Virus record (IMG/VR): IMGVR_UViG_2531839312_000008
Location: 1,574 to 65,573 of that record
Origin: a virus
DNA: 64,000 nucleotides
Reading direction: 5' to 3' (one strand)
Below, piece by piece: positions 2,620 to 41,823 of the stretch. The stretch's first letter is position 1, and each line of letters begins with the position of its first letter. Under the pieces are notes generated by a model. It was given only the letters and a program-made list of their open reading frames with translations. It ran no database searches and was not told the origin of the DNA. The position numbers and the translations under genes are program-made.

Positions 2620-3927
2620 CTATGAATACTCTTCAATAATTACAATCCCTACTTTCCCCGCACCGCTAGAATATAGACTCCCTGACATTCCCGTGTCGTA
2701 GGCCCCGCCACCTCCAGAGCCTATAGCTTTTGCATCTGCCCCTCCGCCAGACCCTGCACGACCTCCTCCGCCCCAGTAAGATGGGCCTCCATGCCCAGGG
2801 AAGATATGCGACCCTGATTGACCGTCATAACCGTCGCCACCACTCGTATTAACATCCCCGCCTGTCGCCGTTCCTCCAGTACCACCAGGCGTAGTTGTAG
2901 CATTGAGATAAAAAGCGGCTACTCCTCCATATCCAATTATTGTTCCCGCAAAAGAAGAAAGTGAACCCGCATTACCCGCAACAGCACCGCTCACAGCCGA
3001 ACCGCCAGCGCCAACAACTACGGAGTATGTAAGACTTGATGAAATCGTGAGTTTTTTTATTGCAGTGCCCCCCGCGCCACCTCCGGCACCACCCAGGGTT
3101 TCAGATGTTGATGAGCCTTCGCAGCCCCCGCCAGAAGCACCTCCTCCAGTCACCAATACATTAATCATCCGAGTGCCATCAGAGGGGGTATACGTGTAGC
3201 TTCCTGATGTCGAGAACACTTTCTTACCTATATACCGACCAAAATTAAAATCTTGGACAAGATTAGTACCATCGCCCCGGATCTGATATGAGGTCCCATT
3301 TGGTACAGTGATCCCAGTGCCACTAACCGTGCTACAGATAACGTTGTATTTACCCGTGCAGTTATTTACTACCGTCCAAGTCTTGGCCCATGCGGGGAAA
3401 TAAACATAAATGCTGGCCGTTAAGGTTCCAGATAAAATCACCACATCACGAGCTGCCTGTAAACATGTCAATGTCGAAGCTGTTGCAGATAGTCCGGTTA
3501 CTGCACTTGAACCTGTAAACGCCAGGGGGATCCATCCGGTGCTAGATGCTGCAGTACCTTCTGGGTCGGTGATATTGGCATCTATGGTATTCAACCAATT
3601 GCCTTTAAAATCTGAAGAGCGCAATACCGCCCCTTTAGGATAACCAGTAATAGCGGCAGCAAAGGTTGAATCAAAAGGTATTGCCCCCCCGGCATCGCCC
3701 CATTGAAGCTTATTAGTGATATCGAACAGGATGCCATTAGTATCAAGGCCGGTTGGCGGTTTTCCGCCTGAGGAAATTGCAGTTCGGGTTAATGGTGGAA
3801 ACCCGACATCATAAGTTGCAACACCATCGGATAATGAAGTAGTTGTTGAGCTATTTGCAATGTCGTTATATTCACCGTTTGCAGCAAAAGCAGTAGAGAG
3901 TCGATCGGGGATTCCTGAACTTTTCAT
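2620..3927 (-). CDS. Tail fibre (proximal) protein with Gly-rich C-terminal domain
   Basis: N-terminus typical of the fibre gene after DUF2612 (GFPPLT...GGKPP...NGIL); GGGGAGG repeats. Confidence 0.8.
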   Translation of the reverse strand: MKSSGIPDRLSTAFAANGEYNDIANSSTTTSLSDGVATYDVGFPPLTRTAISSGGKPPTGLDTNGILFDITNKLQWGDAGGAIPFDSTFAAAITGYPKGAVLRSSDFKGNWLNTIDANITDPEGTAASSTGWIPLAFTGSSAVTGLSATASTLTCLQAARDVVILSGTLTASIYVYFPAWAKTWTVVNNCTGKYNVICSTVSGTGITVPNGTSYQIRGDGTNLVQDFNFGRYIGKKVFSTSGSYTYTPSDGTRMINVLVTGGGASGGGCEGSSTSETLGGAGGGAGGTAIKKLTISSSLTYSVVVGAGGSAVSGAVAGNAGSLSSFAGTIIGYGGVAAFYLNATTTPGGTGGTATGGDVNTSGGDGYDGQSGSHIFPGHGGPSYWGGGGRAGSGGGADAKAIGSGGGGAYDTGMSGSLYSSGAGKVGIVIIEEYS

Positions 3928-4538
3928 TAATTGGTCTCAAATATATATGACACGACACATCCCGCAGGGCGGGGGAGAATATTCCCATTTTGAATGATGG
4001 CTAACTCTGGAGTATTTGGTGTAAAGTCGAAGCGATATGACATAGCCATGGGCCCATCATGCTGAACCCAGGCGTTGCCAGAGTCGCTGAACATATACAT
4101 CAGCATGGCATTCATCTTGGGAACGGTGCAGTCAGATATATTTGCCATGGCCTTCATCATGATTGCTTTTCGATAATAATCATCAGACAAAACAACACGG
4201 CCGTCAGTATTCAATGATGGGTCAAAAAAAGGGTAAGTACTGAAGGGTTGTGGATCTGTTGTTGTCGTCACTTCAAGCTCTGCCTCACGAAAACCGAAAT
4301 AAAGGTTTGTATCGCTGTACTCCATGGTGCGGCTTAGATTGACGATTTTTCCCCAGATATTTAGCCCGTAAGTATTCGCAGTGCTGACATCCCAGATATT
4401 CGTATAAAAATCATCAATAAACTCCGATGGGCTTACCGCCTGCCAAAGCAGGTTTGCCATATTGACGATTTTTGGAGAGTTGGAATATTGCCTGAGGATG
4501 ACAGAACTGACGTCGAAGTCAGAAAAGCCTGTCGCCAT
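3927..4538 (-). CDS. Baseplate wedge protein, DUF2612 family
   Basis: QYSNSP, A.TYGL.IWG.IV and LPRPAG motifs; follows baseplate J. Confidence 0.85.
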   Translation of the reverse strand: MATGFSDFDVSSVILRQYSNSPKIVNMANLLWQAVSPSEFIDDFYTNIWDVSTANTYGLNIWGKIVNLSRTMEYSDTNLYFGFREAELEVTTTTDPQPFSTYPFFDPSLNTDGRVVLSDDYYRKAIMMKAMANISDCTVPKMNAMLMYMFSDSGNAWVQHDGPMAMSYRFDFTPNTPELAIIQNGNILPRPAGCVVSYIFETN

Positions 4539-4541
4539 TGA

Positions 4542-5792
4542 TTAGCTGCTCAGTGATACCGTGATGTTCGATGAACTCAGTGTAGGGATCTCGTCGATAC
4601 CGAACTCAAGGCTGGTTGAAAAAGTAGAGTTATCCGTGGAAAGCTCGATGCTTAAAATATTAATGTTCTGCTGATCGATATCCTGCACGCCGCCGTAATA
4701 CCGTCCGGCGTAAATCGTAGAACCGATCCGCGCGCGGGTACCACCATCTTCACCATTGAATGCTTCAAGAATGATAGATTGAACAGATGATGTTAAATCT
4801 TGCGGCAGGTAGTCATTACTCTCTAGCGTAACATTCACGTAAACAGGGATTGTGGTCGGGACTGTCCAGTAATAGGTATATTCCGGGTAATTTGATGTAT
4901 AGTTCGTGTCGTCGGTCACAGTGTAAGAGGTTTCATTTGACGTCGAGCATTCAGTAGCGCAGCCGGGATTTAACTTGTTATAAAATGCATCTGCCACATC
5001 AGAAGAGTCCCCGCCATAAACAGCGATGTAGGCCGTGCCAACGGGGATACTTACGGCTGTAGAACCCTTGGATATAACGGTCGTCGTATTGTTTGAAAAC
5101 ACGTAAACATCGGTAACATCTGTGATCCCCAGCAGCGCAGCATAAAGCGCTTCAATGGTGTTTTTGCTGTTAGCAGTGACCATCTGGCGACGACGCCACT
5201 CAAAATTATTTCGCGACTCCTCTTCCGACCCCAGCACGCCAGCGGCATCGTTCGTAATGCCTGACCAGCCCGTAACGGCCTGATAGATAGTGGTCAGCGT
5301 GCCTGCGGCGCATTCGATAGGCCCAGTACTCGAGTTCGTGAAAACTACTGAGGCTGTCCCATCACTGCCTATCGTTGCGTCGGCCGTGGAGTAATATATA
5401 TACCCGCTTGTGTCCTGGGCATAACTTCCCGACGGAATATCCGTGTCAACCAGCCCTGTACAAGTTGCTGTTACTGTCGTGCCCGTCGCCGGGTTACGGT
5501 CAATAAAATACATCTGCCCGATCGCATCTTGGAATCGGCCGCTGGAATAATCCGGGTTAATCATATTCGCGAAGGCCAGCAACTGGTCATTTTTATCGCC
5601 GACAATGGCGGTTTCAACCATCGCGTATTGTCCTTGCGGCGTCGTTAAGTCTGTACTGGCATCGGTGCCATAAGCTGTCTGCGCATCCGTTAACGAGCCA
5701 TTGAGGACATCAATTAAATCAGGCGCAGTAATGCCCTCAGTGCTAAATGTCATCGACGGCACCGCGGTTGAAACTGTTGTGGTGGTGGTCAT
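4542..5792 (-). CDS. Baseplate J-like protein
   Basis: TPQGQ, GR.QDAIG..YF..R and ITND.AG..G.EEESR motifs; synteny. Confidence 0.9.
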   Translation of the reverse strand: MTTTTTVSTAVPSMTFSTEGITAPDLIDVLNGSLTDAQTAYGTDASTDLTTPQGQYAMVETAIVGDKNDQLLAFANMINPDYSSGRFQDAIGQMYFIDRNPATGTTVTATCTGLVDTDIPSGSYAQDTSGYIYYSTADATIGSDGTASVVFTNSSTGPIECAAGTLTTIYQAVTGWSGITNDAAGVLGSEEESRNNFEWRRRQMVTANSKNTIEALYAALLGITDVTDVYVFSNNTTTVISKGSTAVSIPVGTAYIAVYGGDSSDVADAFYNKLNPGCATECSTSNETSYTVTDDTNYTSNYPEYTYYWTVPTTIPVYVNVTLESNDYLPQDLTSSVQSIILEAFNGEDGGTRARIGSTIYAGRYYGGVQDIDQQNINILSIELSTDNSTFSTSLEFGIDEIPTLSSSNITVSLSS

Positions 5793-9909: not shown

Positions 9910-10734
9910 TTACTCAAGCTTCATCATCCCTTTAAGTCCTGTTTTAAGCTCAAGGCTATTCCTGACCATTTTCACAATCATGCATGAGTCGTTTATTCTG
10001 TCGTAAAGCTTCACCGCCAATGGCGATCCCATTTTTACAAGCGAAGGGTGAAGCTCGTTACGCCAAATCTCGCTAATGACATCCATATTTGTACATGCCG
10101 CATTGATGTTATGTACCTCAGTGGAAAAATCAGTGACGACCTCCTGCTTTGGCATCCACTCACCTTCAATCACCTTTCCAGCCAAGTATTCGACAGCTTC
10201 AGCAGTCTGTCTCGGTGACAGTTCGTCGATATGGTTTACACCGAACTCTTTGTGCACCAACTTATAAACCGCCTGATAGGTCAGCCCATACTTACCCATA
10301 ATGCGGTTTACGATGCCGCGTAGCGGGGTGCGATCGTCAACGGTGGTTTCTGGCCTGCGGACCGCAGCGCCTTTAGTCCAATAATCATGGAGGGCCGTGA
10401 AACATTCTTCCTGATAGCGGATCAAACGATCTCGGATATCATCGCGTACTTTTGCGGGGTTGATGCTGAACAGCCAGCCATTGAGTTTTTTCAGAGGGAT
10501 GCACAGCATGCGTTGCAATCCACCGTTTGTAGGGATGGAGATATCTCCACACCCAAACTTATCCATCTGATTAATAAGCTTTATATACTGACCTTTCCAG
10601 TTAAGACCGATATTCTCAACAACTGGTTTCATCGCCACATAAGCAACACCCGCTGCCATGGCTGTGATAACGCTCTGGCCGTGGAACGGCAAAGAGGTAG
10701 TGTTCACTGCTTCAATAATTGCTATACTGTTCAT
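9910..10734 (-). CDS. ant: P22 Ant-like antirepressor
   Basis: MNSIAIIEAVNT...AGVAYVAMKPVVENIGL...CIPLKKLNGWLFSINP.KVR.DIRD.LI.YQEECF closely matches P22 Ant as I recall it. Confidence 0.93.
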   Translation of the reverse strand: MNSIAIIEAVNTTSLPFHGQSVITAMAAGVAYVAMKPVVENIGLNWKGQYIKLINQMDKFGCGDISIPTNGGLQRMLCIPLKKLNGWLFSINPAKVRDDIRDRLIRYQEECFTALHDYWTKGAAVRRPETTVDDRTPLRGIVNRIMGKYGLTYQAVYKLVHKEFGVNHIDELSPRQTAEAVEYLAGKVIEGEWMPKQEVVTDFSTEVHNINAACTNMDVISEIWRNELHPSLVKMGSPLAVKLYDRINDSCMIVKMVRNSLELKTGLKGMMKLE

Positions 10735-10808
10735 CGTTAGTTTCTCTCAAGGTTACTGACATTAGAGGCCCCGTTAGTGTTAGCGCACTGCGGGGTTTCG
10801 CATTTCTT
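10735..10808 (+). ncRNA. sar: sar-like antisense RNA
   Basis: TGC-TATACT extended -10 at 10720-10728 within the ant start; hairpin gaggccccg...cggggtttc plus T-rich tail; same position and size as P22 sar. Confidence 0.65.
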
Positions 10809-10977
10809 AATGGTCATTCGAACGCTCCTCACGAAGACACCTCGCCAGACGCTGCACGATTGCCGAGTTGATCGAAATGCCATCCATCTCCGCCAAGCGG
10901 CGGATCTCCTCCTTCATGCGCTCCGGCAGGCGTAGCATAAATTTGTCGCTTTTTGACCCTGTATAAAGGGTTATCAT
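10807..10977 (-). CDS. arc: Arc-family ribbon-helix-helix repressor
   Basis: KFMLRLPERMKEEIRRLAEMDGISINSAIVQRL; GGAG RBS; directly upstream of ant. Confidence 0.85.
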   Translation of the reverse strand: MITLYTGSKSDKFMLRLPERMKEEIRRLAEMDGISINSAIVQRLARCLREERSNDH

Positions 10978-10987
10978 AATAGCTCCC

Positions 10988-11050
10988 AATGATATCACCA
11001 TGACTTCAGTGTCACTATGACTCCATTTACTGATAGTGTCAATGTGATAC
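10988..11050. promoter_or_regulatory. Divergent arc/mnt promoter-operator region
   Basis: Repeated half-sites ATCAC/GTCAC..ATGAC/GTGAT (atcaccatgac, gtcactatgac, gtcaatgtgat) between two divergent RHH genes. Confidence 0.55.
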
Positions 11051-11075
11051 CATTAAGAAAATTTAAGAGGTGTGT

Positions 11076-11357
11076 ATGTCAGACAAGCAGGTACGGGATT
11101 ACGACAAATTTATGCTCAGGCTACCTGATGGGATGAGGGATTCCATAGCAGATTTAGCCAAGAAACATGGTAGGTCGATGAACGCTCAAATTGTTCATAT
11201 TCTGGAAGAGTACATCACCCCACCTAAAGTTGATGATATGCCCTACCTTACAGATGCAGAGTTAAAATCTTCTGATAAAGTACAGGAATGGATGAATGTT
11301 CTGTCTGAAAAGATTTCCATTATTGAAAAGGTTGTCAAGAAAAATTTTCCCGAATAG
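11076..11357 (+). CDS. mnt: Mnt-like Arc-family repressor
   Basis: KFMLRLPDGMRDSIADLAKKHGRSMNAQIV plus C-terminal extension; divergent from arc as in P22 immI. Confidence 0.75.
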   Translation: MSDKQVRDYDKFMLRLPDGMRDSIADLAKKHGRSMNAQIVHILEEYITPPKVDDMPYLTDAELKSSDKVQEWMNVLSEKISIIEKVVKKNFPE

Positions 11358-12626: not shown

Positions 12627-12733
12627 GTTTTTGGGGCCTTCCTTGTCAATTGAAAATTATTCTACAGAAGATTGTAGCAACTTCAATGGTGTTTATTTCA
12701 ACAGACATCCCGGGCCTGCCGGCTAAAGCAACT

Positions 12734-12749
12734 GCCCACCTGAGTGGGC
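12734..12749. repeat. GCCCACCTGAGTGGGC hairpin, copy 4
   Basis: Same 16-bp core as 8864-8879. Confidence 0.8.
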
Positions 12750-12770
12750 TGCTTCGACGCTTTGTGATGG

Positions 12771-13298
12771 TCATGCTGCTTTGTCTATAAGACCGGGAAT
12801 GCTAATTTGCCCCTGCTGCTCGAGTCGTTCCATTTTTGCCAGTAACTGTGGCTTTTTCACTCGCCCCCAACGGTTAAGCAATCGGCCTGACATACTGGCA
12901 ACATCCTTTTCTTTCATGTATTCCAGCATAAGCTCATTACGATCTTTTTGGTATGAGTGAGAAATTTCCAGCAACTTGTCACGCATCCAGTTGAATGCCT
13001 TGATAAACGCCTCCTTGATTGCCGCAGCTTTCTTCCCAGTGAATGACATGATGATGTACATAGCGCCATCACGGGAAATTTCATATTCAACATACTGATT
13101 ACCCTTATGTTCATAGGTAACCCGCGAAAAGTTGCTGGTTAGAAATTCACCTGAGCAATCCAGTTTTTCTATTTTCTGGATGATGTGGTGGTGCTGCTTT
13201 CCAAAGTAATCAGCTACCTTTCTGGAGGTGGTGATAATTCTTTCACCTGAAACTGAAACCATGTCACGAAAGTCGATTGCTGCAATTTGATTTTGCAT
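12771..13298 (-). CDS. rha: Rha-family regulatory protein (copy 1)
   Basis: TTSRKVADYFGKQHHHIIQKIE...NF...Y...EISRDG...IMSFTGKKAA..KEAFI.AF. Confidence 0.9.
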   Translation of the reverse strand: MQNQIAAIDFRDMVSVSGERIITTSRKVADYFGKQHHHIIQKIEKLDCSGEFLTSNFSRVTYEHKGNQYVEYEISRDGAMYIIMSFTGKKAAAIKEAFIKAFNWMRDKLLEISHSYQKDRNELMLEYMKEKDVASMSGRLLNRWGRVKKPQLLAKMERLEQQGQISIPGLIDKAA

Positions 13299-14775: not shown

Positions 14776-15384
14776 CTACTCCGGTTTATCTGTTTCACTC
14801 CCGCCAGACTCAACGCCGCCGTGAACATGGCTTGAAAGCGCAATGCCATTCCCCGTCACTTCCCCTTCAGCAGTGATGGTGCTTGTTGTGGTCACAGTAC
14901 CATCAATTTTCAGGCCATTAGGAGCGACAATATTGATGCCCGAGCCGGTAAACTCGATATATTCAGTTGGGTCGCCATTCAGCAGGCCTATGCCTCCAAG
15001 ATAAACGCCAAATTGGCGAGAATGCCTCTGCCCTGTAGCTGCAGTTGCAGCTGCCTTGCCTGATAGAACGTTAGATATGTCTTCGTCACAGACAAGCATC
15101 AACCCCATGTCACCGGCTTGAGGATTAATGATTATGGCACTACTGCCCATTTGTAGACGGAAATAAGGAATGCCAGACACACTCTGAGAATCGATTTCCT
15201 CATTAGCTGCGTTAACGGGGGTCACTAACGGCTTGACTACGCAAGTCTTGGCATCGCTATCGACACTTTCAACAATAACAATCTCGATGAAGGTTGCCTG
15301 GCGAAGCAACTTTTTGAATACATAGGCCAAAGAGTTGGCTTCTGAAGCGCTGTCATGCGCCATCATGGTGGTTTCAACTGACAC
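14776..15384 (-). CDS. Baseplate central spike (gpV/Gp138-like)
   Basis: IPYFRLQ.G...I...P..GD.G; C-terminal L.SHVHGGVESG iron-binding tip. Confidence 0.9.
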   Translation of the reverse strand: MSVETTMMAHDSASEANSLAYVFKKLLRQATFIEIVIVESVDSDAKTCVVKPLVTPVNAANEEIDSQSVSGIPYFRLQMGSSAIIINPQAGDMGLMLVCDEDISNVLSGKAAATAATGQRHSRQFGVYLGGIGLLNGDPTEYIEFTGSGINIVAPNGLKIDGTVTTTSTITAEGEVTGNGIALSSHVHGGVESGGSETDKPE

Positions 15385-16246
15385 TGGCTACTCCATTTTT
15401 AGGCGTCAATAAAAGGGTTGAGAAGAAAGGACCATTATCCACCCAAGACGATATCTGATGCGCTGATTGAGCGGTGATAACGTATTCGCCTGATGCGTTT
15501 GGAACTGAAGTTGTAAGTTTGACTGCCTTGCCAAGCTCAAATTTGGGGTTATATATAGCAGTGCAGAACACCCCAAACTCCATAAAAGTTGGGTAGCCTA
15601 TGAGTCCCGAGCTGGTTGACAAGGCAATGGTGTTTTCATCGACAGCCTGCCCTTCGATATAGGCATTAACTGTTGAGAAGTCCGTAACGATAAAGACTCT
15701 TTGTCCTCGCACGGCCTCTTCAATTTTAGCAAACTGATCAGCAGCGCCCCCCTTTAAATATATTCCATTGAAAGTTTTCGAAGAATTGCATATACCGACT
15801 GTCATACCCACTTTCTGTGCGATAGTTGCAAGAACTGTTTTGAGAGTCACATTTCCAGCAATGCTGGTATCAGTGATGGGGTTATTGAACGTTAACGGTT
15901 GTGCGATGACCTGTATTTCTAATGGAACATCCGGCGCTTGGCTGTAATCCGGCCTCGCCCATTGAATGACCCCCTCGAAGAATATGACGCCATCCACCTT
16001 GATCCTGATTGTAGTGCCGGGCCTGCTGTTGTACTTAAAACCGCTGCCGGAAATAATCGACATTTGGGATTCGCTTAGCCCGTAAATGCTAGCATCCAGG
16101 GTGTAGCCGCTCATGCCGGCATTGATATTTTGTGATGCGATAATCTTCGCATCTGCGATATGCAATGTGTTGTCGTTAGCTTTAGAAGTGAAAGACCCGC
16201 CAGTCAGGCTGATAGTGACATCAATTTTTCTGGTTTTATACGTCAT
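15374..16246 (-). CDS. Baseplate hub protein
   Basis: Synteny; L...SGLIGYP motif. Confidence 0.75.
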   Translation of the reverse strand: MTYKTRKIDVTISLTGGSFTSKANDNTLHIADAKIIASQNINAGMSGYTLDASIYGLSESQMSIISGSGFKYNSRPGTTIRIKVDGVIFFEGVIQWARPDYSQAPDVPLEIQVIAQPLTFNNPITDTSIAGNVTLKTVLATIAQKVGMTVGICNSSKTFNGIYLKGGAADQFAKIEEAVRGQRVFIVTDFSTVNAYIEGQAVDENTIALSTSSGLIGYPTFMEFGVFCTAIYNPKFELGKAVKLTTSVPNASGEYVITAQSAHQISSWVDNGPFFSTLLLTPKNGVASVS

Positions 16247-16569
16247 GCTGCTGCGCTCTCTAATTCTGCGTTGGTGATGTAACAAAGCTGGAACCGGGTT
16301 CCCAGCTCTGACCATTGAGGATCATCCGCCCCCTGGCTATCGATAAAAAACAGGTCCCCGCTAAAACCGGTTCTTGCCCGGAGATAGCTATAGCGAACCA
16401 ATCGGTTAGCGTTCATACACAACACTCCGAGACAAACGGCGGCATCACCCACCCATAAGTCTAAGTAAAGCCCGGTTGTGTGTTGGTGAAACTTCATCGT
16501 GCATGACACGCTGTCCAACGAGATATTGAACTGTTGCGACATTTCTGCGGAAAGAGTGATTATTTGCAT
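16243..16569 (-). CDS. Small baseplate/tail protein
   Basis: Q.F.I.L...G.Y.DL...G..C.....LVRY.YL...GF.GDL.F.D.QG..DP...ELG.RF.L.Y pattern; synteny. Confidence 0.75.
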   Translation of the reverse strand: MQIITLSAEMSQQFNISLDSVSCTMKFHQHTTGLYLDLWVGDAAVCLGVLCMNANRLVRYSYLRARTGFSGDLFFIDSQGADDPQWSELGTRFQLCYITNAELESAAA

Positions 16570-17396
16570 TAAGAAATCCACGATTTCACTAGTGAATTAA
16601 CACCTTTGACGATTTGTGTGCTGGCCGTCGTTGATTCAGAGCTCCAGGTGGTTGAAACGCTCGTTGCGGCACTATTAACCTCTGTCGTGACCGCGTCAGC
16701 AGTGGTACCCAACACGCTGGAAAGAGTGGCCTTGCCACTGCTGATCGCATTGGTTACGTCTTTGAGGGTTGCATTCGTCACGGAGCTTTGCGTGGTGACA
16801 GTCGTCATGGCTACGCCCGCAGAGGTTTTCTGATTGCTGCTTGTCGCAGAATCCTCACTGATGCTGATCACTTCTTGGAAATAAGCGTTAACCGTCAGTA
16901 AGGTTACGCCCCGCCCCTCTTTCATCTGGTAGTCGTAATGCACCAAGTCGCAAGAGGCAAAAGAAGTATCTGGCGTTTCGATGGTGTAAATGTTCGCGCT
17001 GGCGATCATCTTATCGAGCAGGTTAATGAGCTTCTCACGGGAAAGCGTGGTCAGGTTTGTGAGGTTTGGGATTGCCCCGCTATACCCCGTCCAACCTTCC
17101 AAGGTGAACGTTAAACGAATATCACCCGGGCGGCGCACTTTGTTATAGCTGGTATAGCTGCCTTTTTCGATGGGCGCATTGGCAATCGAAGCATCTGATG
17201 TTCTCTCAAATCCAACCCACGACGTCGGTGTAAATACCGTAGTGCCAGCTGAGAAAGAAGAGGCGTAATCTGAATTACTATCAACGGTCGTTACAGTAAT
17301 GCTGTACCCCGGCTTTAGGACGCTACCAAGGATACTGGACAAGCTTCCACTTTTCACAGCACTTAGTAGCGTTGTTTCACTTAAACTGAATGCCAT
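16569..17396 (-). CDS. Tail-tube initiator / distal-tail-like protein
   Basis: PIEKGSY.SYNKV..P motif; follows the tape measure. Confidence 0.7.
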   Translation of the reverse strand: MAFSLSETTLLSAVKSGSLSSILGSVLKPGYSITVTTVDSNSDYASSFSAGTTVFTPTSWVGFERTSDASIANAPIEKGSYTSYNKVRRPGDIRLTFTLEGWTGYSGAIPNLTNLTTLSREKLINLLDKMIASANIYTIETPDTSFASCDLVHYDYQMKEGRGVTLLTVNAYFQEVISISEDSATSSNQKTSAGVAMTTVTTQSSVTNATLKDVTNAISSGKATLSSVLGTTADAVTTEVNSAATSVSTTWSSESTTASTQIVKGVNSLVKSWIS

Positions 17397-20076: not shown

Positions 20077-20517
20077 TTAAGAAGAATACTCAGACGGGGT
20101 AACAGATTCCCAGCGGATTAATGCGGTGATGGGCTGAACGGTCTTTGCTGCTGAAGCCATCGTGGTGCAGTTAATCAGCACGCCGTTTGTGCAGGTGTAC
20201 TTCTTGCCATGGGTTGGGAAAATAATGGTCGCGTTACAGCGATAAACCGCGATGCTGGTTCTGCTGGTTGTTGCCCACGTCTGGAACTTCGTGTAGGTGG
20301 CGCTATCCGGCATGATATGCCATGTCTGGTCCATAGGCGTAAGTATCGCCCCGGCCGATAACGTCCCATCAACTCCCATCACCGTTTCCGCCAACTCAAG
20401 ATTGGTCACATCAAAAATATTATCAGCCGTAAATCCCTGAAGCGTAAAACCAGAGGTGTACAAGTTAGTGACAGTCATGGTTGCTACGACGTCAGCAGCA
20501 GTGATTATTCCACTCAT
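20077..20517 (-). CDS. Tail tube protein
   Basis: LQGF.ADN.F...ET.MGVDG.LSAG motif; follows the sheath. Confidence 0.85.
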   Translation of the reverse strand: MSGIITAADVVATMTVTNLYTSGFTLQGFTADNIFDVTNLELAETVMGVDGTLSAGAILTPMDQTWHIMPDSATYTKFQTWATTSRTSIAVYRCNATIIFPTHGKKYTCTNGVLINCTTMASAAKTVQPITALIRWESVTPSEYSS

Positions 20518-35155: not shown

Positions 35156-35443
35156 TTAAGCTGCGGTTTCCACTGCTGTCGAGGTATCAGTGGTGTCGTC
35201 TGAGGCAGCACTGATATCGGTATCGGTATCGGTATCGGTATCGGTATCGGTAGCTGAGTCGGCGCTTGAATCAGTGGCGGTTGCCGCGCTGGTTTCGTCA
35301 GTGAATAGCGCTGTAATCTGCTTTACGGCTGATTCTTCCAGTCCATCCGTTTTTAAATCTTTCAGCTTCGTGATGATCAGGGACTGCACTTCACTATCTT
35401 GCAGCACAGTTTTCAAATCATCTTGAGTAACTTCAACAGTCAT
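35156..35443 (-). CDS. Small acidic Thr/Asp-rich protein, paralog B
   Basis: Aligns with 32476..32718; (TD)n tract. Confidence 0.75.
   Translation of the reverse strand: MTVEVTQDDLKTVLQDSEVQSLIITKLKDLKTDGLEESAVKQITALFTDETSAATATDSSADSATDTDTDTDTDTDISAASDDTTDTSTAVETAA
35216..35251. repeat. (ATCGGT)6 in-frame microsatellite encoding Thr-Asp
   Basis: Six perfect 6-bp units. Confidence 0.9.
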
Positions 35444-35553: not shown

Positions 35554-36012
35554 TTAGAGGTATTTATCTTTCAGCGCTACTAGTTCGACTTCAACTTCTT
35601 TACCCAGCACTTCGATACCCTGCTCTACGAATTTAAAAAATGCTTCTGCTTTGGCTTTAAACTCTGCCAGAGGAGACTCTGAAGTAGTCGATACCACGTC
35701 TGTGGCTGTAGAAGCCGTTTCAGTGGTTGCGGTAGTTGTATCAGTAGACGTAGCGGTTGTGGTATCGGTCGAAGCAGTGGCATCAGTTGAGGCTGTGCTC
35801 GCATCAGTGGTAGCGGCCGTAGTTGATGAGTCAGTGGTGGTCGCTGCTGCCGTGGTTGTATCAGTAGTGGTTGCTGCGGCAGTAGTTGCCGTTGTATCGG
35901 TAGTTGTTGCAGCTGTATCGGTCATCGTGTTTTCTCCGGATGTTGAAGTTTCAGCCGTCTTGGCTGAGGTGAAATAAAGGCTCTTGATAGCAGCCCAAAG
36001 ACGCTTAATCAT
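35554..36012 (-). CDS. Mucin-like Thr-rich protein with helical C-terminal domain
   Basis: About 51 Ser+Thr in residues 30-113 (manual count); second in-frame ATG with GGAG RBS at 35925; C-terminus FVEQGIEVLG...LVALKDKYL. Confidence 0.8.
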   Translation of the reverse strand: MIKRLWAAIKSLYFTSAKTAETSTSGENTMTDTAATTTDTTATTAAATTTDTTTAAATTTDSSTTAATTDASTASTDATASTDTTTATSTDTTTATTETASTATDVVSTTSESPLAEFKAKAEAFFKFVEQGIEVLGKEVEVELVALKDKYL

Positions 36013-36583: not shown

Positions 36584-36850
36584 TTATTTACCTTGTTGAT
36601 TGGTTTCAATTTGGCGGATGCCATCTAATTGGCTATTGCAGTTCTGCAAGTCGGTTAGCAGTAACTCATTCCACAGCACGCTTGCACCGTAAGTTAACGG
36701 GTCACTTGGCATGGGTGACGGCTGGCACTGATTTAGCAGGCTGGCCGGTATCGGCGTTACTGGCACTTTGACGTACTGCGTTGTAGTGGTCCCGCAGGCT
36801 GTCAGTAGCGGCAGCAGGAACAAGCACCAGATTGCACGGTGCTGTTTCAA
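36584..36850 (-). CDS. Rz1: o-spanin (Rz1-like lipoprotein), probable TTG start
   Basis: LTA/C lipobox; Pro-rich P.PA.L...C; CN..L..IR pattern; overlaps Rz. Confidence 0.85.
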   Translation of the reverse strand: MKQHRAIWCLFLLPLLTACGTTTTQYVKVPVTPIPASLLNQCQPSPMPSDPLTYGASVLWNELLLTDLQNCNSQLDGIRQIETNQQGK

Positions 36851-37121
36851 GTACCGTCTTAATGATTGTCTGGCGGCCCTGACTGGCAGAGGCGTTCGTT
36901 TTTTGCGCATCCAGGGTAGCTCCGGCAATGGTGTTGAATATGCCGACGCTCAGCGCCTGAGATTGGGTGATGAATTCGGCTTCTTTCTTTTGCTGCACTG
37001 CGATAGTGAGTTGGTCGGTGGTTGATACCGACTTACCGTAGTAGTGGAAGGCAGCCTACATCAGCAGGGAAATTATCAGCAGGATGATAGCTGTCAGGGC
37101 AACGGCAATTTTGTTAATCAT
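36702..37121 (-). pseudogene. Rz: i-spanin (Rz-like) interrupted by an in-frame TAG at codon 22
   Basis: MINKIAVALTAIILLIISLLM*AAFHYYGK... continues in frame into the 36702..36998 ORF; TAG at 37056-37058. Confidence 0.85.
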
Positions 37122-37721: not shown

Positions 37722-38027
37722 TTACTCCACCTGATCCATGGCGCTTTCCACTTTTTCAGCGACGTTAGCAGGATTAACTTCTGAATCGCCTTTATGCCCG
37801 GCGAGAAATGAGACCATTGCGTCCGTACGTTTCTCATCAAGCGTCTGCTTTACCTTTAACGCGTTGCGATTGTTTAGGAAGGTACTGAATGAAAGTAATG
37901 CACCAAACAATGCACACAGGACGTATATCCACTGCTCGGTCGATAGGCCCGCAGCACTGGCAATAGTCGTCAGCGTGGCCCAGAAATGTGTCCACCATCC
38001 GTCATTATTCTGTTGATTCATTTTCAC
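37722..38027 (-). CDS. S: Holin (pinholin-like) with GTG-AAA-ATG dual start
   Basis: Two TM segments; directly before the endolysin; starts at 38027 and 38021. Confidence 0.8.
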   Translation of the reverse strand: MKMNQQNNDGWWTHFWATLTTIASAAGLSTEQWIYVLCALFGALLSFSTFLNNRNALKVKQTLDEKRTDAMVSFLAGHKGDSEVNPANVAEKVESAMDQVE

Positions 38028-38074
38028 GGTTCCACTCCCATTCTTTAGATGGGCTGTGTCAGTAGTCGAAGGGA

Positions 38075-38131
38075 TTAGCGCCGGAATGCATTGCAATAGG
38101 CGTCATTTGAGGGTTGAGCATTCGGCGCTAA
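38075..38131 (-). promoter_or_regulatory. Long hairpin between the glycosyltransferases and the holin
   Basis: ttagcgccggaatgc / gcattcggcgctaa inverted repeat. Confidence 0.55.
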
Positions 38132-38164: not shown

Positions 38165-39118
38165 TTAAGAAAATGATTCGAATAACTGGCGGCGTAGCTC
38201 GTTTGCATCTTTGATGTGGTAATTCAGACGAACATGCTCCGCAAGTGAAGCCTGATAATCCTCAAGCCTGTTCTTGTCCTTAATGAGAGACTTCATTTTC
38301 CTTGAGAAATCATGATTTCCTTCAGCGTATAAGACATGATCGCAATCGACCTCATTAAAGTAAGGTCTAACTTTCGAGGCAATGAATGCTAAGCCCTTCG
38401 CGCCCGCTTCCAGCATCTTCAGGTTTGATTTGCAACGGTTAAAGGCGCTATCAACCAGCGGTGCCAGGGATGCCTGGTGGCCGTCATAAAGCTGCATGTA
38501 ATCGGCAAGCTTCATGGCTGGCTTAATTTGCTGCCCCTTCAAGTTTCCGAGTATTTTTTTCCACTCTGGATCATCAAAACGAACACCGGCGATCGTAACC
38601 TCAGGCAAATGCGGTAGTAGTTTTAAATCCTCACAATGGGATGCACCACCGGCCCAGATATATGTGGTTTCAGACTCTTTATCAGGTGAAGTCGTGAATT
38701 GGCCTTCGTCGTAAGGCAAAGCGTTAGGGATAACCACAACATTGCGATTGACTTGCCTTACCTGCGCAGCCAAATGAGGGGTTGTCACAATTACAGCGTC
38801 TGCTTCTTTCAGGCATAGTGGGATAACTTCGTTAATACCGGCCTTTCTAAAACGGTCATACAGGTAATGTCCTTCGTCGAGCAGCCAGTGATCATCAATG
38901 TCGATGACAATCCGATACCCCGCACGTTTCTTTTGCATCAGTTCTGCAAACCCGCCAGTGGGCATCCTGTTACACCAAAGCACAGGCACCTTAGGTTTCG
39001 GCAGGTAGGTTTGCTCCATGTACTGGTAGGGCATAACAACACGGTGATAATCGCACGCGGTCGACGGACGCAGATCGGCAAACAGGTTCGAATTACTATT
39101 ATTCTGGGAAACCAACAT
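38165..39118 (-). CDS. Glycosyltransferase, GT-B fold (GT4-like)
   Basis: VIDIDD, ADAVIV.T..LA, VIPNAL, WAGGASH, APL....FN.CKSNLK.LEAG..G...IAS. Confidence 0.85.
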   Translation of the reverse strand: MLVSQNNSNSNLFADLRPSTACDYHRVVMPYQYMEQTYLPKPKVPVLWCNRMPTGGFAELMQKKRAGYRIVIDIDDHWLLDEGHYLYDRFRKAGINEVIPLCLKEADAVIVTTPHLAAQVRQVNRNVVVIPNALPYDEGQFTTSPDKESETTYIWAGGASHCEDLKLLPHLPEVTIAGVRFDDPEWKKILGNLKGQQIKPAMKLADYMQLYDGHQASLAPLVDSAFNRCKSNLKMLEAGAKGLAFIASKVRPYFNEVDCDHVLYAEGNHDFSRKMKSLIKDKNRLEDYQASLAEHVRLNYHIKDANELRRQLFESFS

Positions 39119-39740
39119 AAATAGGGCCCCCTTCTCTCACCAGGTCTTCCATTAATTTATTTCCTGCTTCCATTCCAGCTTTCTTAACTGCGCTTGAGAC
39201 AACAGAGTTTCGAAATCCTGAAAACATGTCTTCGACGTGGATCCCCGCTACTACGGATAACGGGACTTCCCAACCACTGGATTTACCGCACAGCCCAGCA
39301 CAATGTGCGCGGTACGCGTAGGTAACGTCTTCGGGGCCATACTTTCCGTACCGTTCATCAAAGTAACCCACCTCTTCAACACATTTGCGGGTGAGCATGG
39401 AGAACTGAACGGTTACGCCAGTACAGAACATCACCCCGTCAACGTAGCCATAAGGGGGCGAGTCAAAAACATGCGGCCAGCCAATGAAATCAAGCTCGCG
39501 ATGTCGAGCAGCAGAGATTGCCAACTCAGCCCAATCCTCTCGGCGTGGGATCACATCGTCATCCATTAAAAAAATATAATCACAGCCTTTTTCGTAGAGC
39601 GATTTCAGAACACGATTTCGAGCGTATGCCGGACCGTTTCTTTTTGTATCAGTGAAGACTTCCAACAACGCGCCGTCGGGCATTACATAGTCAGGGAGTT
39701 TTCTATCCCCAGTAGTGATTACACCAACACCGATTTGCAT
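39099..39740 (-). CDS. Glycosyltransferase, GT-A fold (GT2-like)
   Basis: G.A.ARN, YIFLMDDD (DxD), VG.FDE.Y..YG.ED..Y..R. Confidence 0.88.
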   Translation of the reverse strand: MQIGVGVITTGDRKLPDYVMPDGALLEVFTDTKRNGPAYARNRVLKSLYEKGCDYIFLMDDDVIPRREDWAELAISAARHRELDFIGWPHVFDSPPYGYVDGVMFCTGVTVQFSMLTRKCVEEVGYFDERYGKYGPEDVTYAYRAHCAGLCGKSSGWEVPLSVVAGIHVEDMFSGFRNSVVSSAVKKAGMEAGNKLMEDLVREGGPIYVGFPE

Positions 39741-39772
39741 AAGCTTCCTACAGAAGGATTGATGAGTTCAGA

Positions 39773-39802
39773 CAAAAAAAAGCCACGCGAGAGCGCAGCC
39801 TG
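39773..39802 (-). terminator. Terminator ~30 bp upstream of the glycosyltransferase RBS
   Basis: GGCTGCGC-TCTC-GCGTGGC plus T8. Confidence 0.65.
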
Positions 39803-39894
39803 AAATGGGGCCAGAATAAGCGTCTGGGAGCGCATTTCCCTATCTGATATTGTTAAATTGCTCAGAAATAACCATACAAATACGGAGGAATTAA

Positions 39895-40052
39895 TGACTG
39901 AAAATACAAATTCATCGGATGGAGGTAAGCCTCAACCAACACCACCACCCAAACCAGCTCCAGCTCCTACTCCGACTCGCGAAAGAAATCCTCGAACTGG
40001 TTGGACTGTAGTCGGTGATTCTGCTGAAGGCCTCAGAAGAAAAAGTAAGTAA
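39895..40052 (+). CDS. Pro-rich 52-aa peptide
   Basis: GGAGG RBS; PQPTPPPKPAPAPTP; 3' end overlaps the convergent membrane-protein gene. Confidence 0.6.
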
Positions 40053-40602
40053 GCGCTGAAATAATAAGTGCGCAAACAGGAGTAAGGATTGTAGCGATCC
40101 TTACTCTCTCAAGTCCCTTCCCTATTCTGGAATTTTCATTCTTGCTCAATTCCGCAATTTCGTTCAAATCGACAAGCCGATAGCGTCTCAAAATATTCAA
40201 TGTCGAAGGCGCTCCGGTGTAACCTTTAGACTTGAAGTTACTATGATCGGCCTCATCGAACTCTTTATAACCTGCATGATACAAAGCATAAGGCGTAGAT
40301 GAAGCCAGAGCTCTTCGCCTGACTGACAACACATAAATAACCAGATAAACCGCACATAAAGCCCAATAAACGGTGAACACTGCTATTCCTGCGGCAAGAA
40401 AACCGGGATAACGATTTTGTGTAAGTAGCAGAAAAGATGAGCCAATACCCACGATCAATATACTGAGTAGCCTTTGCCCGTTCTCTTTATTCAACGAGTT
40501 AGACTGATGGATTTCTCGGATGCAGTCTTCACCCTGCTTCTCCAGAAAATTGAGCATGTCATCATCAATATCTAGGAAGTGCTCATCATGTGGTTTTTTC
40601 AT
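40033..40602 (-). CDS. Membrane protein with three predicted TM segments (moron)
   Basis: Two N-proximal and one C-terminal hydrophobic helices. Confidence 0.75.
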   Translation of the reverse strand: MKKPHDEHFLDIDDDMLNFLEKQGEDCIREIHQSNSLNKENGQRLLSILIVGIGSSFLLLTQNRYPGFLAAGIAVFTVYWALCAVYLVIYVLSVRRRALASSTPYALYHAGYKEFDEADHSNFKSKGYTGAPSTLNILRRYRLVDLNEIAELSKNENSRIGKGLERVRIATILTPVCALIISALTYFFF

Positions 40603-40699
40603 AGCTAAAACCTTATAGGCGTTTAATGATGGGATTTTATCTCAATGCAACTAACGGTCGAATTCTTATCATCAAAACGGCGCTAAATTTGGGCAATAA

Positions 40700-40760
40700 A
40701 AAAGGCCGCCAAGCTGGCAGCCCTTAAATGAGAAAAGCCCCTGCATTTCTGCAAGGGCCT
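40700..40760 (-). terminator. Tandem intrinsic terminators in the late leader
   Basis: GGCCCTTGCAGAAATGCAGGGGCTTTT and GGGCTGCCAGCTTGGCGGCCTTTTTT. Confidence 0.65.
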
Positions 40761-41052: not shown

Positions 41053-41823
41053 CTATTTAGTAACGCGATTTAAGGCTTGCTCTGCCCATGACTCCTCTTT
41101 CTCCAAATGAGTTATTAGCGTGTCATAGAATGGCTTTATCGTCTTATCCCATGTGGCAGCTGATATGGTATCGGTGAAGGCGCATATAGCTCTGAATGCG
41201 TCAACTGCAGGGACGCGTTCATACCCTCGGCCACGACAACGCTTGCAGTCTTTCATTACGGGAAATCCCTGCTTTTCTGTTTCACCCTGATCCAAAGAAA
41301 CAGTCCGCCCCCGGCAGTCACGACACGCTACTGATACCTCCCCTTTCCCATTACAGTGAATGCATAATTCACCAACATCTTCGCTCACTACTCTCGCCGG
41401 AGTCTTTTCACCACAGCCAGGATGTTTGACTACACGCCTGTTGCGATAGATTAGCTTATGACCCCGGCATTTTTGACACAGCTCTTTCCCTGAAGCGCTT
41501 CTGCAATAATCCTTGAAGGCAAATTTTGCGAGCACTTGCACTACTTTCACTTTAATCTTTGTGTCTAGCTTGCGTAAGGCTGGAACCTTGTCGCAATGCT
41601 TCATACCATGCTGTACCAGTAGTTGAATTGCTCTCTTTGAATCTTCAGGGCTAAGGCCTAACTTCCCCAAGAAGGCCTTAAATCCTAACTCTGCTTGTGA
41701 CTGACATAACCCGAAAGCCCCCAACACGTCAGTACCAGTCATTGTGTCTCCAGTACAACGCGATGAGTCCGTGAACGACTGAGTTTTACAGAAGAAATAC
41801 TTTGTCGCCGATTCAAGATTCAT
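41053..41823 (-). CDS. Q: Late antiterminator Q (lambda-type)
   Basis: M.LES..K.F..K...TGTDV; DYCRSA; CxxCxG Zn fingers; W..TIKPFYD.L. Confidence 0.93.
   Translation of the reverse strand: MNLESATKYFFCKTQSFTDSSRCTGDTMTGTDVLGAFGLCQSQAELGFKAFLGKLGLSPEDSKRAIQLLVQHGMKHCDKVPALRKLDTKIKVKVVQVLAKFAFKDYCRSASGKELCQKCRGHKLIYRNRRVVKHPGCGEKTPARVVSEDVGELCIHCNGKGEVSVACRDCRGRTVSLDQGETEKQGFPVMKDCKRCRGRGYERVPAVDAFRAICAFTDTISAATWDKTIKPFYDTLITHLEKEESWAEQALNRVTK

Follow-up and report, generated by a model that had tools for sequence, protein, structure and literature searches.

A glycosyltransferase gene pair in the late operon

The window analysed here is a stretch of 64,000 nucleotides (positions 1,574 to 65,573 of the IMG/VR record IMGVR_UViG_2531839312_000008, a provirus record of 66.4 kb) coming from a prophage of an enterobacterium. 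Just upstream of the holin gene, on the minus strand, it carries two glycosyltransferase genes that we name after the folds of their products, GT-A and GT-B. GT-A (39099-39740, minus strand; all coordinates are those of the window unless a locus is named) comes first and codes for a soluble protein of 213 residues. Its 3' end overlaps by 20 nucleotides the start of GT-B (38165-39118, minus strand), which codes for a soluble protein of 317 residues. GT-A matches PHROG 2456, labelled 'glycosyltransferase' (E 4e-56), and more weakly a PHROG for the T4-type HMC glucosyltransferase family; its Pfam scores stay below threshold, with 24.7 bits for TAGT, the TET-associated glycosyltransferase family (cut-off 27.5), and 22.1 for Glycos_transf_2 (cut-off 23.3). 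GT-B matches PHROG 7162 (E 4e-122) and scores above the cut-off for Pfam Glyco_trans_1_2 (PF13524). In PHROGs, both families are classed as 'moron, auxiliary metabolic gene', and a search of NCBIfam gave no match.

Motifs of the catalytic type are preserved in both enzymes. In GT-A, the DDD motif (D60-D62) and the pair E137-D138 are invariant in an alignment of 22 homologues, while GT-B keeps 42 invariant residues in 30 homologues, among which K230, K234 and E237 form a lysine/glutamate cluster in the C-terminal half. AlphaFold models, with a predicted local distance difference test score (pLDDT) of 90 for GT-A and 93 for GT-B, display a GT-A fold closest to the solved structures of STIV A197, B4GALNT1, the glycosyltransferase domain of LH3 and GalNAc-T3, and a GT4-type GT-B fold closest to PglA, GtfA, MshA, BshA and SdgB; PimA, TarM and WrtF also figure among the top fold matches of the enzymes, and LmbT is a further fold match. 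No hydrophobic segment was found in either protein. Conserved as a unit and coupled in translation, the two genes make up a cassette that joins a soluble GT-A enzyme to a GT4-type GT-B enzyme. An initial annotation, made from the letters of the window, had already proposed two overlapping glycosyltransferase genes on the late strand; open reading frames (ORFs), PHROG and Pfam matches and structural models all agree with this, and the pair lies between the antiterminator gene Q and the holin gene. The same annotation saw no Gtr partner, no transmembrane segment and no base-hydroxymethylase, and indeed searches of the provirus returned neither a GtrA protein nor a thymidylate-synthase-like enzyme.

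The position of the pair is that of late genes. Along the minus strand, Q (41053-41823; Pfam PF03589, E 5.5e-39; PHROG 127) is followed by two strong terminator hairpins in tandem, resembling a tR' pair (40701-40760; fold energy -35.4 kcal/mol, z -4.1), then by a promoter-like site retrieved by a promoter scan (40634-40661), the gene of a membrane protein of 189 residues with several hydrophobic segments (40033-40602; PHROG 11870, E 6e-77), and an intrinsic terminator that closes this gene (39772-39801). GT-A and GT-B come next, directly followed by the holin gene (37722-38096; PHROG 1350, E 1e-15), by that of the endolysin, a phage lysozyme (37225-37719; Pfam PF00959, E 3e-36), and by the spanin gene that neighbours these lysis genes (36584-36928). 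The initial annotation had set the enzymes between the late promoter pR' and the holin gene. Their place on the late strand stands; they do not, however, follow pR' directly, since the tR'-like pair and the gene of the membrane protein intervene. The latter, with its promoter-like site and its own terminator, has the classic layout of a moron, and hicAB or antirepressor genes occupy this position in relatives.

The terminator that ends this moron is a hairpin (39801-39780) with a 9-bp stem and a run of eight U, at -12.4 kcal/mol, and only about 30 nucleotides separate it from the ribosome binding site and ATG of GT-A. It had been read from the outset as leaving little room for a lysogenic promoter, and a consensus scan found no promoter-like site in this gap, nor a terminator between GT-B and the holin gene. 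As far as such a scan can tell, the pair therefore lacks the promoter upstream and the terminator downstream that mark a moron. Mostly within the space between the 189-residue moron and GT-A, on the other strand, a Pro-rich ORF of 64 codons (39858-40052, plus strand) overlaps the 3' end of the moron by 20 nucleotides; it is probably not a gene. From this arrangement, polymerase modified by Q would have to read through the tR'-like pair before it could reach the enzymes, and we infer that the pair is expressed late only. The stretch is absent from all public sequencing runs: three RNA runs with the same species label contributed 0 reads, and the best DNA run had relatives of Q and of the lysis genes only; these runs say nothing about transcription either way.

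A mobile cassette in many phages

GT-B has 557 relatives in IMG/VR. In phages of GenBank, tblastn gave 142 matches, the best being gp164 of phage phi92 and its counterparts in phAPEC8-like phages, with about 46% identity; GT-A is 34% identical to phi92 gp165. At loci where GT-B is conserved with at least 35% identity, GT-A directly adjoins GT-B in most cases, and in most of these loci the order is GT-A then GT-B (L039, L044 and L047 have the opposite order). Many cassettes include a third, small glycosyltransferase (PHROG 14179), and two (L005 and L011) have added a nucleotide-sugar epimerase. Where a host is named for a protein hit, it is for instance Serratia, Enterobacter, Pseudomonas, Burkholderia or Ralstonia. 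Searches at near-identity of the nucleotide sequence in GenBank phages, with the cassette or with 24 kb around it, gave nothing useful, and a first scan of genomes of the species with GT-B alone retrieved no relative.

The surroundings of the cassette vary from phage to phage. In the closest relatives, with about 82% identity, it lies directly 5' of the holin gene as in the window (L002, L009). In other temperate phages (L004, L005, L010) it comes after the lysis genes and before those of an HNH protein, TerS and TerL. In a group of phages with an HK97-type capsid (L038, L057, L048, L052, L046), it separates the gene of the capsid from that of the head-tail connector, and in L050, L054 and L055 it follows the terminase and portal genes. 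Among these unrelated phages the setting is one of late or structural genes. On these comparisons, the pair behaves as a cassette that is both conserved and mobile.

A domain of the GT-B family was also noticed in Erwinia phyllosphaerae (G001 contig 28, 238649-239329, L123). It is located within an ORF of 1239 codons, away from the prophage of this organism, and the ORF as a whole corresponds to a large multidomain glycosyltransferase.

Threonine and serine tags at the end of capsids

In mycobacteriophages, Freeman and colleagues are said, in work of 2023, to have located glycans at the C-terminal end of the subunits of capsid and tail tube, and virion glycosylation is reportedly found in Che8, Rita, Corndog and Myrna. 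The same work is reported to see little evidence of virion glycosylation outside actinobacteriophages. The C-terminal ends of capsid proteins encoded near the cassette and its relatives are, in this context, worth considering in three unrelated families.

In the first, an HK97-type capsid of 431 residues, all eight distinct capsids encoded beside the pair end in Thr (..TQAT, ..AAPTT, ..TAAT, ..VATT, ..IKAT or ..HPTT), whereas some 55 enzyme-less relatives end in ..PTP, ..GP, ..AA and similar sequences. The correspondence is not perfect: L132 has a ..QAT end with no enzyme within 3 kb, and L181, located inside the enzyme-carrying clade, has neither tag nor enzyme. In one member of the group, L052, the tag is not limited to the capsid (..HPTT), as the head-closure protein ends in ..TGTT and the major tail protein in ..WTTT.

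The second family comprises protease-capsid fusions of 650 residues. There, the two carriers of the pair, L005 and L010, end in ..NTTT and ..NPTT. In 31 more distinct capsids of this family, the gene adjoins that of another enzyme, 485 residues long, with an N-terminal domain related to PHROG 2456/1579, and the capsid ends are ..QTS, ..AGS or ..QGS; in the 12 capsids that lack an enzyme of this kind the end is ..SGG, so that 33 have both tag and enzyme and 12 have neither. About 30 IMG/VR loci (L247-L311), of which L263 is an example (3246-5278 of that locus), have a 485-residue glycosyltransferase (PHROG 1579) together with a 197-residue 'glucosyltransferase' (PHROG 854); their genes are placed between the lysis genes and those of HNH and terminase proteins, in many enterobacterial prophages. 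The protease-capsid fusions of these loci finish in ..TS or ..GS, against ..SGG in relatives lacking both genes.

The third family, PHROG 29, is represented by a carrier (L055/L327) ending in ..TPTT, when its nearest relatives, 72-76% identical and enzyme-less, end in ..KLAA. In the same family, L334, with a PHROG 2456/1579 enzyme encoded 5 kb downstream, ends in ..NPAT, against ..LPGG in its nearest relatives. The NPAT end is shared in L334 by the major head protein (10001-11110 of that locus) and by a late protein of 179 residues (12687-13226; PHROG 6767) encoded at the usual place of the tail-tube gene, and the glycosyltransferase gene stands 3-5 kb downstream of the two.

The pattern thus recurs in three capsid families and with two enzyme architectures. 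When placed on trees, it amounts to about five concordant independent events, with one to three ambiguous ones (L132, L352/L353, L347/L350). When C-terminal tags were counted over all neighbouring genes, only a weak enrichment was seen (11/392 versus 15/1354). Taken with the placement of the cassette next to capsid genes, the co-variation of tag and enzyme, as read from gene neighbourhoods, supports virion glycosylation as a function of the enzyme family.

A proposed glycosylation of late proteins as the best explanation

The explanation that we find best overall, granting it about as much belief as doubt, is that soluble enzymes produced late in infection put an O-glycan on late proteins of the phage. 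The pair would be transcribed only upon Q-dependent read-through of the tR'-like and moron terminators, together with the genes for lysis and for the particle. In the cytoplasm, both enzymes would use nucleotide sugars to make a short O-linked glycan on Ser or Thr residues of phage late proteins, one enzyme possibly beginning the glycan and the other one extending it. In the relatives, the most likely acceptors would be the short Thr/Ser tags at the C-terminus of the capsid and, in some phages, also tail proteins. In the phage of the window, three kinds of candidates may be named: a Thr-rich protein of 152 residues, a protein of 95 residues with a tail of Ser, Thr and Asp, and tail proteins that end in Ser.

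In this particular phage, the capsid, of the Mu type, ends in ..AQMVGV and the tail tube in ..SEYSS. Only one of the 22 relatives compared for the same structural module has the cassette. The tube, sheath and capsid of the window are slightly richer in Ser/Thr than those of all 20 enzyme-less structural relatives, while the other enzyme carrier shows no such increase. Six tail, baseplate and fibre proteins, all encoded on the minus strand, end in Ser: 137-2509 (..VVSSS), 2620-3927 (..EEYS), 4542-5792 (..SLSS), 15374-16315 (..ASVS), 16569-17396 (..SWIS) and 20077-20517 (..EYSS). In Ser-rich proteins such ends may arise by chance, and they were compared with relatives for the tube only; they are not used as support.

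Several observations weigh against glycosylation of the particle. In the comparison with the 22 relatives, no C-terminus separates carriers from non-carriers, and both capsid and tube are untagged in the window. The correlation between tags and enzymes stems from few independent events, and with so few independent pairs no sign test could become significant. Lytic phages of the phi92 type have their homologous cluster beside genes for endolysin and replication, at a distance from those of the head. The matches by fold are low in identity and generic for enzymes of the GT-A and GT4 kinds, and they do not tell the acceptor. In BLASTP comparisons, GT-A and GT-B shared only short segments at chance level with gp108-110 of Che8, enzymes that are proven to act in this way. 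Finally, virion glycosylation in this phage is a prediction from genes and their comparison. The initial annotation, which had proposed glycosylation of virion or late proteins, is therefore upheld in part: what holds for the enzyme family, with its capsid-adjacent cassette and co-varying tags, does not extend to the untagged capsid and tube found here. Overall, the evidence from relatives suggests, and does not prove, that particles are glycosylated in phages of Gram-negative bacteria.

A broader proposition may be put forward tentatively, as possible rather than probable. Virion O-glycosylation would be widespread in temperate and lytic phages of Proteobacteria, and the mobile cassette would recognise C-terminal Thr tags (..PTT, ..PAT, ..xAT) on capsid or tail proteins. 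Where the C-terminus of the capsid is not free, as would be the case here, Thr-rich accessory proteins on display would be glycosylated instead, creating a mucin-like coat on the particle or on a late protein. If this were true in phages of enterobacteria, pseudomonads and burkholderias, glycosylation of the particle would be a general trait of phages. It would bear on phage therapy, because of immune recognition and clearance, and on the stability and adhesion of particles. It would also interest glyco-engineering, as a short C-terminal tag and two soluble enzymes would make a portable protein-glycosylation system for Escherichia coli. The pairs of tag and enzyme make the idea of glycosylation directly testable.

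Small proteins rich in threonine, serine and aspartate

The two small proteins just mentioned deserve a discussion of their own. The initial annotation had described 'mucin-like' proteins rich in Thr, Ser and Asp on the same transcript, and had linked them to the enzymes. The proteins do exist, encoded by ORFs at 35554-36012 and 35156-35443, both on the minus strand. A version of our preferred explanation, in fact a special case of it, is that they are the acceptors in this phage and would form, once glycosylated, a mucin-like display; we deem it unlikely.

The first protein, 152 residues long (PHROG 22600), has a linker with a Thr fraction of 0.47. It belongs to a family widespread after lysis cassettes, with a conserved N-terminal end (MIKxxLAWLKSLYY), a conserved helical C-terminal end, and between them a variable linker that may be Thr-rich, rich in Ala, Pro and Val, or made of an Ig-like Big_1 or Big_2 domain. 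Besides the window, members were seen in L092, L100, L103 and L028; prophages with myo-, podo- or sipho-type modules have the family, in Yersiniaceae as well as Erwiniaceae. The family looks like a display scaffold, and the Big_1 and Big_2 domains of some linkers would fit a displayed region. The second protein, with 95 residues, has a conserved helical N-terminal domain and a variable acidic tail of Ser, Thr and Asp that contains a (Thr-Asp)6 run (35190-35260, minus strand). This run brings to mind the surface proteins of staphylococci, whose Ser-Asp repeats are glycosylated by GT4 enzymes, among them SdgB, one of the fold matches of GT-B.

Within the lineage of the window, the association with the enzymes is suggestive. 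The carriers combine a Thr-rich linker (Thr fraction 0.25-0.47) with a tailed 95-residue protein, and the enzyme-less relative L122 has a Thr-poor linker and a version of the second protein reduced to 63 residues, without the tail. In L004, moreover, the genes of the Thr-rich protein and of the tailed protein directly precede GT-A and GT-B, in this order. However, Thr-rich versions exist in the absence of enzymes in L121 (an Erwinia prophage), L206 and L102; for L121, the contig of the prophage has no cassette, and the only GT-B-like match of the genome is on another contig, in an ORF of 1239 codons. Conversely, the version of L010 stands beside three glycosyltransferases and is not Thr-rich. 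As for the tailed protein, its homologues are present in enzyme-less prophages of Erwinia and Pantoea. With L121, L206, L102 and L010 as counter-examples, the association between enzymes and Thr-rich proteins is weak, and so is the link that the initial annotation had drawn between them. Furthermore, the structural modules that accompany both small families are of the myo, podo and sipho types, and this speaks against a fixed place in the virion. The link of each protein with the enzymes is a weak one, and both remain acceptor candidates, nothing more.

Alternative acceptors

The enzymes might instead modify a glycan of the host envelope, be it the core or O-antigen of lipopolysaccharide, enterobacterial common antigen or capsule, working from the cytoplasmic side of the membrane. 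They could do so in the lysogen, through read-through of the moron terminator, or late in infection, for instance to keep the progeny off cell debris or to exclude other phages. Builders of envelope glycans related to GT4 and GT2 are often soluble or peripheral, and PglA, PimA, TarM and WrtF are found among the fold matches. The mobility of the cassette and its occasional nucleotide-sugar epimerase would suit this function, as would the label given by PHROGs to both families, and the upstream terminator could leak. In contrast, there is no flippase of the GtrA type and no membrane partner, the pair has no promoter-like site of its own, and phi92-like phages, which are strictly lytic, carry the cassette too. 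Above all, the repeated insertion in head modules and the co-varying Thr/Ser tags of capsids would be left unexplained. We see this alternative as improbable, and the Gtr-type serotype conversion that it brings to mind as unlikely: PF04138 (GtrA) has no match in the provirus, under conditions where the positive control worked, and membrane enzymes are missing.

The acceptor could also be a host protein, a small molecule or a nucleotide of immune signalling, the pair then being a counter-defence or metabolic module that rides the late operon. That the phage of the window offers only candidates for acceptors leaves room for this, as does the distance between the phi92-like cluster and the head genes, and the fold matches include GT4 enzymes acting on small molecules (MshA, BshA, LmbT). 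Nevertheless, neither the co-variation of capsid tags nor the insertion between capsid and connector genes would be accounted for, and no defence-related neighbours were seen at the loci inspected. It seems to us quite unlikely.

That the enzymes glycosylate phage DNA so that it escapes restriction, as T-even or TET-associated glycosyltransferases do, has very little chance of being true: the best Pfam match of GT-A is with the latter family, and the T4-type PHROG is also matched, but the first score misses the gathering threshold; neither PF00303 (thymidylate-synthase-like) nor PF00145 (C5 methyltransferase) has a match in the provirus, with positive controls that worked; the cassette sits in late and head modules; and phages of the phi92 and phAPEC8 types, which have the homologous pair, are described as exceptionally sensitive to restriction-modification systems (PMC8594841). 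The sub-threshold match, the missing hydroxymethylase and C5 methyltransferase and the restriction-sensitive carriers together make DNA an unlikely target. A search for TET/JBP proteins (PF12851) in the provirus gave no match either, but its control was silent too, so that this negative carries no information.

Comparison with known systems

Glycosyltransferases of phages that modify DNA, such as the alpha- and beta-glucosyltransferases of T4 or the TAGT family, resemble GT-A through its sub-threshold match with the latter. They differ in that no pathway for hydroxymethylated bases was found in the provirus, and in that the carriers of homologous pairs are sensitive to restriction. With the GtrABC systems, the window shares the presence of glycosyltransferase genes in a temperate enterobacterial phage. 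Yet, a GtrA flippase and a membrane-bound enzyme of the GtrC type are both missing here, and the genes are located inside the late transcript, not beside the attachment site and the integrase gene.

In Gram-positive bacteria, GtfA/GtfB and SdgA/SdgB glycosylate Ser-rich and Ser-Asp repeat proteins. They too comprise cytoplasmic enzymes of the GT4 type, which act on low-complexity Ser/Thr sequences, and the (Thr-Asp)6 run of the 95-residue protein is reminiscent of their substrates. The likeness of GT-B to these folds is generic for GT4 enzymes, however, with 13-18% identity, and the small proteins of the window are only candidate acceptors.

The clusters of phi92 (gp165/gp164) and of phAPEC8-like phages are nearer. 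They contain the same two families, adjacent and in the same order, with the identities given above. They differ in belonging to lytic phages of about 150 kb, where three or four glycosyltransferase genes stand beside endolysin and replication genes; in phi92 the two are part of a row of four. The BASEL study presents this cluster as a putative machinery for glycosylation, which does not protect the phages from restriction (PMC8594841).

It remains to consider the glycosylated particles of mycobacteriophages, the only ones documented in the accessible literature, where glycans shield virions from antibodies. For phages of Gram-negative bacteria, a search of the accessible literature gave no paper on glycosylated virions. 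Two papers (PMC11256854, PMC10877033, citing Freeman 2023) mention that in the F1 phages Che8 and Rita the capsid proteins bear glycans, and that capsids and tail tubes are modified by glycosyltransferases. Distant homologues of GT-A exist among other enzymes of cluster F1 mycobacteriophages and in Myrna (gp234), with about 29% identity over some 150 residues (E 1e-5 to 1e-7). The present case differs by its hosts, which are Proteobacteria, by a GT-B enzyme of another family, by the untagged capsid and tube of the phage, and by being read from genes. It is alike in that the glycosyltransferases are encoded by the phage itself, and in that the Thr tags ending the capsid and tail proteins of its relatives match the type of site reported for mycobacteriophages.

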